Below are positions 11,885 through 49,927 of a stretch of DNA of 64,000 nt, piece by piece. Below the pieces are notes generated by a model, which ran no database searches, was not told where the DNA came from, and saw only the letters and a list, made by a program, of their open reading frames with translations. The position numbers were made by a program, and so were the translations under genes. The first letter of the stretch is position 1, and each line of letters begins with the position of its first letter. Where the stretch lies: contig NC_091980.1 in assembly GCF_044704955.1 (NCBI RefSeq), positions 128,526,001 through 128,590,000 on the forward strand, written 5' to 3'. The DNA comes from Pristiophorus japonicus. Lineage: Eukaryota.

Positions 11885-13967
11885 ATGGCTTCTCAAGTGC
11901 GGCAGAACTACCACCAGGACTGTGAGAATGCTGTTAACAAGCAGATCAACACGGAGCTCTATTCCTCCTATGTTTATCTCTCTATGGTGAATGTTGTATA
12001 TTTGATCACTTTACAATGGTGGCTATGTAATGTGAATTGACTAAATTCTATGCTTGTATTCCGATAACTTCTATTCCTTGCTATCTGGTTCTCCTCTGAA
12101 ATGCCTTGTCTAGTGTGGAAGGTTCCAAATTTACACTGCTTCTGGTAGATTTGGTTCCTTGGGATGAATTGGCCAGTAAAACTGGACCAGTTTTTCTCCT
12201 TTGTACTATGTGAACTGTGTACTATGACCACGTCTCCTACTTTAAGGGGTCTGCTTACAGTTCTAGTAGTTTCTCTTAACTAGCCTGTAGAAAATATAGC
12301 TGGGTTAACAAACAATGATTGTGATTCTGGTGACCAAAAGGGGAAAAATCGTGAAGTTGCTTCACTAATTTGCAGAGCTACAATGAATATAGGGTGCCAA
12401 GATGAAGGTTCCAATTTTGAGCATGTTCAATCAAAGCTGAATTGGTGATCATGGAATGATGCAGCACAGGAGACCATTCAGTCCATTGTGCCTCGCTGAC
12501 TGTTGGGTGGAGCAATACAACTTGTCCACTCCTTGCGTGTTCCCATAGCCCTGTCTAGTATTTATCCAATTTTCTTTTGAATGTTGGCATTTAATCTGCT
12601 TCCACCACCTTTTCATGCCCTGTATGCATATTAAATAATAAAAAAATAGTAATTCCACTGGTTCTTTTGCAAATCACAAAGTTTCCAGATTTAGTTGTGA
12701 AATTATCCACTGTCTGTACAAGGTTAGTTAAGTACGTAGTTTCCATTATAAGGCCCAGGATAATGGTCTGCCATGCAATATCCAACTACGCTTTTGATCT
12801 CTCCAGTCCTACTACTTTGACCGGGATGATGTTGCCCTGCGTCACTTTGCTGAGTTCTTCAAGGAGCAGTCACATGAGGAACGTGAGCATGCTGAGAAAC
12901 TGATGAAATTCCAGAATCGGCGTGGAGGACGGATCATCTTGGCGGACATCAAGGTTGGATTTCATCAATGTGTGGCCTTCTGTCTGGCTCCCCTTGGACT
13001 GATTGGAACCAAACAATATGCAGGATAAATAAGCCATTTGGCTAAGCTGGTCTTTGCCGGTGTTGAGACTCCAGCGGGCCTCCTCCCATCTCGCTTCATC
13101 TCTCCCTGTCAGCATATTGTTCTAGTCCTTTCTCCCCATGCACTTGCCTTGCTTCCCCTTAAATATTCCCTTTTAAATTCCCCCTCCATGTCGTTCTGAT
13201 GACCTAGGCCATCACATTGGTTTCATGGTAATGTAGACTTTTTTGATTGTAGCCCTAATTTTGTTCCATACATCATGTTTGTTTCATCCTGTATAAGTGA
13301 ACTGTTAAAATGTTATTTCTTTCCAGAAACCAGAGCAGGATGAGTGGAGCAATGGTCTGGTTGCGATGCAGAGAGCTCTGCAGATGGAGAAGAATGTGAA
13401 CCAGAGTCTGCTGGATCTGCACAAACTCTCCACTGAGAGCACCGACCCTTGTGTAAGTTTTTTTTTTTAAATGATGTGGGCTTAGGTTGAGGAAACTTGT
13501 TCTTGAGCCTAATTAAAAGTTCTCTGTGCACAATAGCTTTTGGTTGGTGGTTTTTTCTTGCGTGTTGCGGGGGCGGGGGGGGGGCGGGAAAAAGTTGGCC
13601 TACTGTGGACAGTAACTAGAAAATATGTCCCAGTGATCCCAGGACCTGAGAACTTATTGTACAGTGAGTTTAAACTAATGTAGTAATTCCATCAATCTCC
13701 ATTGCACCACTTGACTATCTTCCAGTTCAAAGGATTAAAATCCAAACTCTGAAGGGGAAGCTGACATTCCTTGATATCTGCTGCTGGACATAACTAGTTT
13801 CCCTCTTTCAGTTATGTGACTTCCTGGAGACCCACTACTTGGATGAACAAGTGAAGATGATCAAGAAGCTTGGAGATCACATCACCAACCTGAAGAGACT
13901 GGGAGCCCCTGAGAATGGCCTGGGAGAGTACCTGTTTGACAAGTACACCCTGGGGGAGCGTGACTAA
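11885..13967 (+). CDS. fth1: Ferritin heavy/middle-type subunit, copy 1 (intact, 176 aa, 4 exons)
   Basis: Exons 11885-11986, 12807-12953, 13327-13452, 13812-13967; all introns GT-AG, phase 0. Translation [176 protein letters not shown]. Ferroxidase residues equivalent to human FTH1 E27,Y34,E61,E62,H65,E107,Q141 are present. The symbol denotes the family; exact orthology (H vs M) is not established. Confidence 0.95.
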
Positions 13968-14102
13968 ACTGCTTGGGATCAAGCTTATTTTGTTTAGTAT
14001 TTCCAATTTATATAATTGGGACCCCCGTGCTGTTGGCAATGATGGCTTTGTACAAAGAGCTCTGAGATCTGGGCTCCTGATGTGAAATGTAGCATAACTG
14101 TA

Positions 14103-14108
14103 AATAAA
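14103..14108 (+). terminator. Polyadenylation signal, copy 1
   Basis: AATAAA ~135 nt after the stop, followed by a GT/T-rich tract; conserved at 25203, 37908 and 50062. Confidence 0.75.
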
Positions 14109-15169
14109 CTGTTCAACATCGGACTGGGTTTTGTCTTTTTTGTATGTTTTGAGCAGTTACTTATTTTTGATTGATGTGACTTTGCTCATATCAAAGCATT
14201 GCCTAAGGATTTAGTTTGAAATTTCATACATTAATGAGCCATGAGTTGGCCTGTGATTGACAGCTTACTATTTCCCAAATTGTCTTTGGCTCTCACTATC
14301 AAAAACTTTACATCTGCCTGTGTTTTCAGAATTGCACAGAAAACTGGTGTTTGTTTTGGACCTATTAGCATATCTTTCTATTCCTTTCTGCCTCCTGTGT
14401 TTATCTAACTTACCTTTTTTGCATTCAGAGTGAGAACTGTGGATAGCTTAGTAAACTAAACACACTGCTGCTATAGACTTCTTCTTAAACTATGTGGGCA
14501 AAGGGCAAGTGACATCATACAGATCAGCAATGTCTGAGCTTAAGGCCAGCATTTATTTCTGTCTCCAATTGCCCTTGAGCGTGAGTCACCTGATACAACT
14601 GAGTGGCTTGCTCGGGCAGTTAAGCATCAAACCACCTGGCTATGGGTATGGAGTGCCATATAAGCATGCTAGTGTAAGTTGGCAGATTTCCTTTCCTAAA
14701 CATTACTGATATGGGTTTCATGATCACTGGTACTGATAATTGCTTTAATTTTAAATGTTAATTTAACAAAATTTAAATTATGCAGCTGCCAGGGTAGGTT
14801 TTGTCTCTTGGATCAGTGGATATATCAAATTACGATCCTCTGGGAGGAGTAAATGTATGAAGAAAAACACTGACATTAAAATAGATAACTGTTCCATCAA
14901 CTTATAACCCAATACTAGCAGCTCCTCCATATTTGCATTTAGTCCTGTTGTGCAATTCATACCAAACAGCAATCATCCTTTCCAAATCCCTTTGGCTCTC
15001 TTTGTCCCCTTCTCATTCATGAATGGATTCAAATGTTGTTAATGCTGGAGCTGCAATATTCCAGTGTTTGCAAGTTATTTGAGTAACTTGGCTGAGAATT
15101 GCACTGGGTGCAATTATATCTCAATCTTTAGTCTATCCATGTTAATGTCTTTTTTTTCAAAAGTTTGTT

Positions 15170-47975: not shown

Positions 47976-48000
47976 GGCTTTTAAGGTAAGTTACATCCCA

Positions 48001-48028
48001 GTTTGTTGTTTCAACAAAGTTTAGATTT
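48001..48028 (+). promoter_or_regulatory. Degenerate IRE-like element, copy 4 5' UTR
   Basis: TGT-TTCAA-CAAAGT-TTAGA (48007-48025); homologues at 22326-22344 and 35606-35624. Confidence 0.6.
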
Positions 48029-48044
48029 GTATTAAAGAATCAAG

Positions 48045-49927
48045 ATGGCTTCTCAAGTGCGTCAGAACTACCACCAGGATTGTGAGGATGCTGTCAACAA
48101 GCAGATCAACATGGAGCTCGATTCCTCCTATGTTTATCTCTCGATGGTGAGTGTTGTACATTTGACCACTTCACAATGGAGACTATGTAATGTGAATTTA
48201 TTAAATTCGGTGCTGTATCCAGCCCACCTATTCTGAGTACCTTGAATCTTAATGACTCACTTTCCTGGGCTCTTTTGAGCTTGTGGTTAAGTTATTTGGA
48301 ATACATTCTGCACTCAGTGCATGTATTTCAGAACTTGTATCCTTTTATAATTAATCATTCCATGGACTTTCACTACCTTGCTTTTTTTTTTATTGGAGGA
48401 TGTCATCTTTAAATTTGAACTTGGACATTTAGAAAGGAAGATCAGAAGTATTCTTTCCTGGTAAGGGTGGTGGAAATCTGGAACCCTTTCTTTCCCATCC
48501 TCCTGCAGCACACAAAAAATGGCTTTGGTTCTGGGCCAAGCTTTATCATTGTGTAAGGGTATAAAAATATTGTTTCTGTGACAATATACATACCAGTTCA
48601 GTGAGCCTTTGACCCCTTGGGAGGGGGGGGGGGGAAAGCAACATTTTCAGGTTGAATTTATGTACAGCACACATAATAGGCCTGTGAAATAATGCACAAA
48701 AATACTTTTCTGATTTCTCCACAGTCCTTCTACTTTGACCGGGATGATGTTGCCCTGCGTCACTTTGCTGAGTTCTTCAAGGATCAATCACATGAGGAAC
48801 GTGAGCATGCTGAGAAACTGATGGAATTCCAGAATCGCCGTGGAGGACGGATCATCTTGGCGGACATCAAGGTTGGATTTAATAAATGAGTGGCTTTCTG
48901 TATGGCTCCTCTTAGACTAAATGTTCCCATATGTGCTAAAGCAATTGGTTCCAATTTACAGCACACAGGCCATTTGGCCAAACTGGTCTTTGCTGGTGTT
49001 TATAACTCCACACGAGCCTCCTCCCACCTTGCGTCATCTCACCCCATCAGCATATTGTTCTCTTCCTTTCACCCCATGCACTTCCCCTTAAATACATCTC
49101 TGCTATTTGCCTGATCAATATGGCTCCAGTTGTTGTGATTGCATCATGGCAAATTTTAAATTCTAATATATGTTCATGTTAAAATAGAATTTTGGTTGCA
49201 CTCCTAATTTCCTTCAATACTTTCTAATGATTGTATCATCAATTGTAAATAAACTGTGGAATTTTCTCTCCAGAAACCAGAGCAGGATGAGTGGAGCAAT
49301 GGTCTGGAGGCAATGCAGAGAGCTCTGCAGATGGAGAAGAACGTGAACCAGAGTCTGCTGGCTCTACACAAACTCTCCACTGGGAGCACTGACCCTCATG
49401 TAAGTTGTTAATGATTTAATGTGGGCTTTTAGGTTCCACAGTCTCCAATTTACGTGACTGTCATTGGGCCTAATTAAAAGATCTCTATGCATAATAGCTT
49501 TGTGTAAGTCTCCCTTTTTTGTTGGTGAGCAGTGGGAAAGGATGGGAGAGGTTGGCCTACTGTGGACTGTGACTAGTAAATGTGTCCCAGTGATCCCAGG
49601 ATCTGAGCACCTACCTATTGTGCAGTAAATTTAATCTAATGCAGTAATTCCATCAATCTCAATTGCACCACTTGACTATCCTCCTGTTTGAGGATTAAAT
49701 ACAAACTCCTGAAGGGGAAGCTGACATTCCTTGATATCTACTGCTGGACATGATTGGGTTCCCTCTTTCAGTTATGTGACTTCCTGGAGACCCAGTACTT
49801 GGATGAACAAGTGAAGATGATCAAGAAGCTTGGAGATCACATCACCAACCTGAAGAGACTGGGAGCCCCTGAGAATAGCCTGGGAGAGTACCTGTTTGAC
49901 AAGCACACACTGGGGGAGAGTGACTAA
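48045..49927 (+). CDS. fth1: Ferritin heavy/middle-type subunit, copy 4 (intact, 176 aa, 4 exons)
   Basis: Exons 48045-48146, 48725-48871, 49274-49399, 49772-49927; GT-AG introns. [176 protein letters not shown]; ferroxidase ligands conserved. Confidence 0.95.

Follow-up and report, generated by a model that had tools for sequence, protein, structure and literature searches.

Tandem ferritin genes lacking a working iron-responsive element in the sawshark Pristiophorus japonicus

A stretch of 64,000 nucleotides from Pristiophorus japonicus (NCBI RefSeq assembly GCF_044704955.1, contig NC_091980.1, positions 128,526,001 to 128,590,000 of the forward strand; hereafter the window) was found to contain four ferritin genes on the + strand, numbered c1 to c4 in order of position. 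Each consists of four exons and three phase-0 GT-AG introns, and the starts of neighbouring copies are separated by 10,478 bp (c1–c2), 13,281 bp (c2–c3) and 12,401 bp (c3–c4), in agreement with a first-pass annotation that had described four same-strand, intron-containing copies some 10–13 kb apart. A working iron-responsive element (IRE) is firmly absent from the leaders of all four. This loss is the most informative feature of the genes and had been missed in that annotation. The gene models are as follows, with coordinates counted from the first letter of the window:

11885–13967, + strand: c1, intact ferritin gene; exons 11885–11986, 12807–12953, 13327–13452, 13812–13967
22363–25055, + strand: c2, ferritin gene whose start codon reads CTG instead of ATG; exons 22363–22464, 23879–24025, 24402–24527, 24900–25055
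35644–37793, + strand: c3, ferritin pseudogene; exons 35644–35743, 36608–36749, 37150–37273, 37638–37793
48045–49927, + strand: c4, intact ferritin gene; exons 48045–48146, 48725–48871, 49274–49399, 49772–49927

The frames and lesions bear out the earlier division into two intact genes, one copy damaged at its start and TATA box and one pseudogene. Both c1 and c4 have an intact frame of 176 amino acids (aa), with poly(A) hexamers at 14103 and 50062, and their proteins are identical to the database entries P0143 and P0342, respectively. The c1 protein carries the Pfam Ferritin domain (PF00210, E 2.7e-39) and exon 2 matches ferritin structures in the PDB. Within c3, deletions of 2, 2, 3 and 2 bp (three frameshifts and one 3-bp deletion) were found along with TGA codons in exon 2 at 36714 and 36726, in place of Arg72 and Arg76; exon 4 is intact, and intron 1 has its donor at 35743/35744 and its acceptor at 36607/36608, allowing for the 2-bp deletion. 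No fifth copy was found in the window, with all 17 tblastn matches at E < 1e-11 falling within c1–c4, and a cytoplasmic polyadenylation element is absent from all four 3′ untranslated regions.

Upstream of the genes, one forward and two reverse CCAAT boxes are common to c1–c4, and an IRE-like stretch lies in each leader:

11661–11808, + strand: c1 promoter; CCAAT boxes at 11661 (forward), 11728 and 11757 (reverse), TATA box at 11801
22128–22292, + strand: c2 promoter; CCAAT boxes at 22128, 22196 and 22225, TATA box changed to TACA at 22285
35380–35544, + strand: c3 promoter; CCAAT boxes at 35380, 35448 and 35477, TATA box at 35537
47810–47973, + strand: c4 promoter; CCAAT boxes at 47810, 47877 and 47906, CATAAA-type TATA box at 47966
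11836–11867, + strand: c1 IRE-like stretch; profile rank 19–20, no CAGUGH loop
22320–22351, + strand: c2 IRE-like stretch; profile rank 13
35600–35631, + strand: c3 IRE-like stretch; profile rank 19–20
48001–48032, + strand: c4 IRE-like stretch; profile rank 10–11

Judged by their motifs, the upstream regions would function as CCAAT/TATA promoters. The TATA lesion had been thought to be confined to c2; the change in c2 is present, but the c4 box also departs from the consensus. No antioxidant-responsive element, metal-responsive element or conserved E-box was detected in the c1–c4 promoters, and a 22-nt promoter pattern gave no match in metagenome contigs. CCAAT boxes may be tied to oocyte-specific promoters in fish, although no confirmation of such a link was found.

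An Rfam scan of the 64-kb window returned zero matches, and so no IRE. The leaders of c2 and c4 gave no IRE_I match at E ≤ 10, those of c1 and c3 were negative when scanned at the gathering cut-off, by motif and by profile, and the CAGWG loop is absent between the TATA box and the start codon in all four copies. As a positive control, IRE_I was detected at 46–57 bits (cut-off 34) in seven of nine loci fetched by an IRE pattern, ferritin coding sequence being located downstream in eight of the nine; an IRE pattern gave no matches in viral contigs. At low iron, ferritin mRNA translation is blocked by iron regulatory proteins (IRPs) through the IRE (PMC3048577, PMC11719527). It is very probable that c1–c4 escape this control if the transcription start, which was placed by the TATA box, lies behind it.

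The IRE-like stretch occupies the same aligned place in the four leaders, 37–43 nt before the start and 41 nt behind the TATA box (69 nt in c3, the leader of which has an insertion). The hallmarks of an IRE are a CAGUGH loop and a UGC/C bulge (PMC3048577). Compared with the Rfam consensus, the UGC bulge is kept in c2 and c3, the upper stem is mostly kept, and the loop of c3 and c4 retains C1, A2 and G5 with AA replacing G3-U4. When a profile built from five distinct control IREs was scored at 127,938 positions of the window, the four leader sites ranked 10th–20th, corresponding to a chance of about 1% per leader. They also fitted a 19-position IRE motif with 4–5 mismatches (shuffle p 0.0004–0.002). 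This suggests that the stretch is likely to be an IRE relic. Against it, the sites score 8–9 bits compared with 32–42 bits for true IREs, 9–19 other positions of the window equal or exceed them in profile score, and the four sites amount to one inherited observation and are not independent. The leaders of c1–c4 fold without a stable hairpin (z −0.6 to +0.6). A window-wide search with a 13-nt IRE motif allowing three mismatches was uninformative (34 matches, 27 expected). The c3 leader also holds a start-stop upstream mini-open reading frame at 35626–35631.

The type of ferritin was examined with a set of seven ferroxidase residues, namely Glu27, Tyr34, Glu61, Glu62, His65, Glu107 and Gln141 (human H numbering; offset +3). 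The residues other than Tyr34 were taken from PMC4117605. All seven are present in c1, c2 and c4, in 68 of 79 sawshark proteins of 170–190 aa and in 30 of 40 array proteins picked by hand from other elasmobranchs. These array proteins with Glu62 are referred to here as the A class. A second multi-copy class of sharks, the K class, has Lys62 in 39/39 proteins, never carries the full set and resembles L chains; no K-class gene was found in the window or among the sawshark entries seen. It is predicted that c1, c2 and c4 encode ferroxidase-competent, H-like cytosolic subunits, which from their residues would form a 24-subunit cage with ferroxidase activity. Both Glu54 and Glu61 occur in c1 and c2, with Asp54 in c4, and as Glu54 is also found in 12/12 chondrichthyan fth1a proteins it is not diagnostic. 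Residue 26 (human Tyr29) was observed to be unusually variable among the 79 sawshark proteins (Tyr in 41, Cys in 29, His in 3, and others), with Asn in c2 and Asp in c4; it is Tyr in 40/40 of the other array proteins.

A further difference concerns Arg23, which is required for the binding of NCOA4, Ala being the only substitution tested (PMC4592949). The residue at this site is Arg in 12/12 chondrichthyan fth1a proteins, Lys in c1, c2 and c4, and Lys or Gln in 79/79 sawshark and 40/40 other array proteins. A weakening of NCOA4 control by the change from Arg23 to Lys can be offered as a lead only. Lys is a mild change and Arg is present in two of six ray relatives, both of which speak against it.

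To place the genes among ferritins, two careful trees were built from 37 and 40 chosen rows, in addition to a larger, quick tree. The FTH1 clade, including chondrichthyan fth1a, was recovered with supports of 100/96 and 100/97, with the A and K classes outside it. Ray and chimaera relatives joined the array (96/82), and its grouping with the Lys62 class was weaker (92/91, 82/91). In the two trees c1–c4 fell with other sawshark proteins (97/98 and 98/96). The identity of c1 to chondrichthyan fth1a is 73–76%, and in S. canicula, S. torazame and Stegostoma fth1a is on a different contig from the array. Thus the lineage of c1–c4 is one confined to cartilaginous fishes, and the canonical FTH1 clade does not include it. 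Strict duplicates of FTH1 were considered and ruled out, the FTH1 clade excluding the array. As to the deeper origin, approximately unbiased (AU) tests reject neither array plus H, with the array as sister to the FTH1 clade (p 0.23), nor array plus M (p 0.21); the AU values for the A class plus HB and the K class plus L were 0.26 and 0.32, and the best tree does not group the array with M/L chains. Ray members of the lineage (P0438, P0440, P0445, P0447, P0450 and P0426) have lost several ferroxidase residues and have longer branches; unlike these relatives, sharks amplified the ferroxidase-intact form. Another sawshark ferritin, P0466, groups neither with the array nor with the Lys62 class or the FTH1 clade. 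Its ferroxidase motif is intact, the NCOA4 site is occupied by Arg, and its gene is a candidate for an IRE-bearing ancestral type.

The status of c2 deserves separate consideration. Apart from its start codon the 176-codon frame is open, all six splice sites are intact, and intron 1 contains an insertion of about 0.9 kb. The last 176 residues of the database model P0024 are those of c2 (176/176 matching), preceded by an exon derived from the 3′ flank of c1:

14530–14673, + strand: first exon of the P0024 model, from the c1 3′ flank; supplies the start Met for c2

It is probable that c2 is a young, dying pseudogene. The alternative that it is functional, starting at the CUG codon or at the P0024 upstream exon, draws on the open frame and splice sites, on the seven ferroxidase residues and on the context of the CTG, where the A at −3 and the G at +4 are preserved and no ATG occurs in the preceding 90 nt. 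It is nevertheless thought improbable. The change in the TATA box is a second, independent lesion, Leu162 has been replaced by Gln, which is not among the three commonest residues there in the 79 sawshark proteins, and the changes of c2 (11 non-synonymous, 7 synonymous) are compatible with neutrality (p 0.11). Moreover, a normal start is found in at least 89 of 97 sawshark entries, and the P0024 first exon, lying 7.6 kb from c2, probably reflects a rescue of the frame by gene prediction.

The window holds only part of the family. The proteins of c1, c2 and c4 match database proteins labelled Pristiophorus japonicus, for which at least 97 distinct ferritin entries were counted in a single search and among the members given for 20 clusters (no more than 15 per cluster); a few of these are fused models, and 79 are 170–190 aa long. 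Clusters of 180, 138, 127, 76 and 69 members mix several shark species, and multi-copy sets were observed in ten further genera (Heptranchias, Heterodontus, Scyliorhinus, Mustelus, Carcharodon, Cetorhinus, Chiloscyllium, Hemiscyllium, Stegostoma and Rhincodon). The A- and K-class protein records of seven other sharks have contigs matching in size. For rays and chimaera, the best 120 of 2,666 matches contain only small clusters of this type, each of 1–4 members, which suggests a low copy number in these groups. In the Greenland shark, 155 'FTL' and 179 'FTH1' copies, 334 in total, have been reported, about 80% of them in three clusters syntenic with the white shark, the largest of which shows ovary-specific expression, and the shark clusters are described as conserved over about 250 million years (Sahm et al., 10.1101/2024.09.09.611499). 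The four-gene array is therefore not narrowly lineage-specific, as had been proposed, but a small slice of a known, old and shark-wide ferritin array. What is new here is the IRE-free state, the lineage separate from FTH1 and the signal of gene conversion.

In the literature searched, one paper on the shark expansion and none on IRE loss in it were found, although the supplements or a later journal version of Sahm et al. may say more. Confirmation that another Greenland shark genome also shows the expansion was not found in 10.1101/2025.02.19.638963, from which the terms are absent, and a Squalomix preprint mentions neither 'fth' nor the sawshark. Two unusual entries were also encountered. P0066 is a catshark gene model in which a ferritin is fused to a receptor-type tyrosine phosphatase with Fn3 repeats and a PTP domain; this is probably an artefact of the model and would point to a gene next to the array. 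P0234 is a 90-aa fragment resembling the shark array proteins but filed under Salmonella enterica, probably by contamination or mislabelling.

With regard to the origin of the copies, the c2 and c3 units are arranged head-to-tail, with about 4 kb of upstream and 3 kb of downstream sequence common to both. This is consistent with the unequal crossing-over suggested in the first-pass annotation. Its statement that introns and flanks are colinear holds for the introns; the flanks are colinear for about 0.9 kb upstream in most pairs and for about 4 kb in c2/c3 only. Divergence between copies is 5–7% in coding sequence, 13–16% in promoters and 17–32% in introns 2 and 3. Across sharks, copies cluster by species or order and not across species, which implies fast turnover, homogenisation or both. 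Within the window a probable gene conversion tract was identified:

13721–13795 (c1) = 24801–24875 (c2), + strand: conversion tract in intron 3, 75 bp identical

This tract spans 20 consecutive polymorphic non-coding sites that are identical in c1 and c2, a run obtained in 0 of 10,000 permutations. In addition, synonymous divergence is 0.07–0.12 in the three pairs involving c1, compared with intron divergence of 0.24–0.27 (Fisher p 3e-5 to 1e-3), and informative sites are split 21/18/12 over the three topologies. A number of results count against conversion. No significant non-coding tract was found in the other five of six pairs, the synonymous deficit is borderline in c2/c4 (p 0.047) and not significant in c2/c3 (p 0.49) or c3/c4 (p 0.18), and such a deficit could arise from constraint on synonymous sites. 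A 92-bp match of c1 and c3 across the intron 3/exon 4 border was not significant after correction (p 0.17). The clean exon 4 of c3 was considered as proof of conversion, but this argument is weakened by the lack of CpG in exon 4; in exon 2, 6 of 13 changes are at CpG sites.

Relative to a four-way reference, non-synonymous and synonymous changes number 13/2 in c1, 11/7 in c2, 11/10 in c3 and 6/8 in c4. A deficit of replacements is seen only in c4 (p 0.008) and, historically, in c3. Pairwise dN/dS between copies is 0.29–0.66; it tells against functional constraint that the own branch of c1 bears no sign of purifying selection. The changes from the sawshark consensus number 10 in c1 and 11 in c2. 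Selection on each copy is thus weak and uneven. The stages of birth-and-death evolution previously read from these copies are clear in the frames, where a pseudogene stands beside intact genes, but they do not form a ladder of constraint, and gene conversion appears to act on top of birth-and-death.

The remainder of the window is rich in repeats. A near-complete element with protease-like, reverse transcriptase (RVT_1), RNase H and integrase (rve) regions lies at the junction of the c2 and c3 units:

26477–31138, + strand: Ty3/Gypsy-type long terminal repeat (LTR) retrotransposon; LTRs 26477–26728 and 30888–31138, 96.4% identical

This element is younger than the duplication and is no part of the ferritin system. 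The intergenic gaps hold retroelement remains, and Pfam searches of 12 long frames returned retroelement domains only. Older Gypsy-like remains are present on the − strand at about 51400–54300 and 59400–63900. A block shared upstream of the four promoters (10987–11460, 21467–22018, 34720–35276 and 47276–47711) recurs free between genes at 15491–16794 and, inverted, at 32858–34719; among the free copies, a piece of about 350 bp is repeated some five times in inverted, tandem arrangement. We take this block to resemble the 3′ end of a Tx1/L1-type long interspersed nuclear element inserted before the duplications, although it gave no Pfam match. A perfect 13-copy tandem repeat of 7 bp is located upstream of c1 at 11222–11312.

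Evidence of expression was sought in contigs of sequencing runs. Contigs of runs X1, X2 and X8 (three of four examined) join the exon 1 donor to the exon 2 acceptor across GT..AG, while loose contig ends in X2 and X8 run on into the next exon. Array-type genes are thus spliced as predicted in relatives of c1–c4. The contigs differ at c1-specific sites and hence come from other paralogues or species, and for this reason the splicing is that of relatives and not of c1–c4 themselves. Runs X1 and X3, from one sample, were about 60- to 900-fold apart in depth over five exon-bearing bins; this was not counted, depth being a poor measure of expression. By transfer from the Greenland shark, expression of c1–c4 in the ovary is rather likely, and the ovary-specific expression reported there agrees with the dosage or tissue-specific role foreseen for the array. 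Two reservations apply. Shark ovaries sit within the lymphomyeloid epigonal organ (PMC5568229), so that an 'ovary' signal need not mean oocytes, and spiny dogfish ferritin has been listed among liver-only transcripts (PMC5568229).

Taken together, the observations can be accounted for by an array of IRP-independent, H-like ferritin genes working by dosage in the iron loading of oocytes, an explanation that is favoured with some reserve. The IRE would have been lost in a common ancestor, before c1–c4 arose. Without an IRE the mRNAs would escape repression by IRP1 and IRP2, so that transcription and the number of copies, and not iron, would determine output. Many such genes with short leaders and CCAAT/TATA promoters would leave the rate of ferritin production governed by transcription alone, and mass production in the ovary may allow maternal iron to be stored and detoxified in large oocytes. 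The copies themselves may arise through unequal crossing-over and be made partly uniform by short conversions, with weak constraint on each one and frequent loss. Oocyte iron loading is the simplest use, since the Greenland shark cluster is reported as ovary-specific, and iron storage in oocytes as the purpose of the array is considered slightly the better bet.

The strongest competitor is a use of the same array, with the same IRE loss, in somatic or immune cells such as epigonal granulocytes, macrophages or liver, where it would be an iron-independent antioxidant or iron-withholding reserve. Epigonal tissue can be part of ovary samples (PMC5568229), and in the hadal snailfish fthl27, with 14 mostly tandem copies, is highly expressed in most tissues and lowers reactive oxygen species in cells (PMC10746142). 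This use is held to be unlikely, in that the sole statement found on tissue for the shark cluster is ovary-specific (10.1101/2024.09.09.611499) and an IRE-less, egg-linked ferritin has a precedent in snails (PMC10799875). Still less likely is neutral drift of copy number in a repeat-rich, recombination-prone region, with most copies weakly expressed and the IRE decaying once control became unimportant. The mean identity among sawshark copies (90%, compared with 95% for single-copy fth1a across chondrichthyans), the replacement counts of c1 and c2 and the loss of ferroxidase residues in ray relatives would all fit such drift. It does not sit well with the full ferroxidase set in most sawshark and other-shark array proteins, the pairwise dN/dS values and the replacement deficit of c4, promoters better kept than introns, or the reported conservation of the clusters. 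An assembly artefact, which the first-pass annotation had called unlikely, or four ancient one-to-one orthologues, found no support and is effectively refuted by the intron divergence, the copy-specific insertions in the flanks and the grouping of copies by species.

Comparison with known systems places the sawshark array closest to the clusters of Sahm et al., which likewise show a very large, clustered and mostly full-length ferritin family of sharks with H-like and L-like classes; the copies named 'FTH1' and 'FTL' there are probably the counterparts of the A and K classes, respectively. Those copies are, however, treated as FTH1/FTL duplicates that are 90% or more identical to human, whereas the sawshark array is outside the FTH1 clade, and the ferritin section of that text does not deal with IREs, residue 23 or gene conversion, nor does the word 'iron' occur in it. 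With shark fth1a the array shares the four exons, the ferroxidase set and the three-fold channel residues; fth1a differs in being a single-copy gene in its own clade, on another contig in the three sharks named above, and in its Arg at the NCOA4 site, where c1, c2 and c4 have Lys, and c1–c4 lack an IRE. The layout of four exons and three introns is that described for ferritins (PMC4117605). Teleost M ferritins share the ferroxidase centre and Glu54/Glu61 with the array, but salmon M keeps its IRE, and indeed H1, H2, M1, M2 and M3 of salmon all do (PMC4117605). In the control locus L001, for which the best match was bowfin M (83%), a reverse CCAAT box and a TATA box with the same flanks are followed by an IRE. 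The distance from IRE to start is 168–172 nt in M-like controls (168 in L001) as opposed to 37–43 nt for the c1–c4 stretch, and the shark leaders are about 130 nt shorter than that of L001.

Amphibian Fth genes form tandem clusters of 4–7 at Gys1-Ruvbl2 (PMC13003380), a candidate for the ancestral site of the array; copy numbers in the teleost M and amphibian clusters are one to two orders below that of the shark array. The tandem amplification of snailfish fthl27 has been read as dosage, as here, but it comprises 14 copies, is recent, is expressed in most tissues and was an independent teleost event (PMC10746142). Snail yolk ferritin also lacks an IRE and is tied to egg provisioning; it differs in being secreted, with a signal peptide and a 42-aa insert, from the digestive gland and from one Biomphalaria gene (PMC10799875). 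The 176-aa shark proteins are colinear with cytosolic ferritins and have neither the signal peptide nor the insert, so the array is not a member of that group and is at most an analogue.

A more ambitious possibility, which is doubtful at present, is a dedicated maternal iron store of sharks in which the subunits of hundreds of H-like and Lys62 L-like genes co-assemble in oocytes free of the IRE and Arg23 controls. If true, vertebrates would have in it a cytosolic equivalent of yolk ferritin, in which loss of Arg23 would mean weaker NCOA4-driven ferritinophagy and loss of the IRE no IRP repression; the lineage it is built from persists in rays as a few copies with a degenerate ferroxidase centre. 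The findings raise testable points, namely whether the IRE was lost throughout the array and ahead of its amplification, whether iron is stored in ferritin by shark oocytes and whether ferritinophagy is blunted by the change from Arg23 to Lys. As the expansion is seen in ten shark genera, caution is also due before ferritin copy number in sharks is read as a longevity trait of one species. IRE loss offers a mechanism for a known expansion that is so far unexplained in the text of Sahm et al. Human FTL IRE mutations lead to unregulated overproduction of ferritin (PMC3048577, PMC11719527), and sharks appear to have fixed the state of these mutants in an amplified family.

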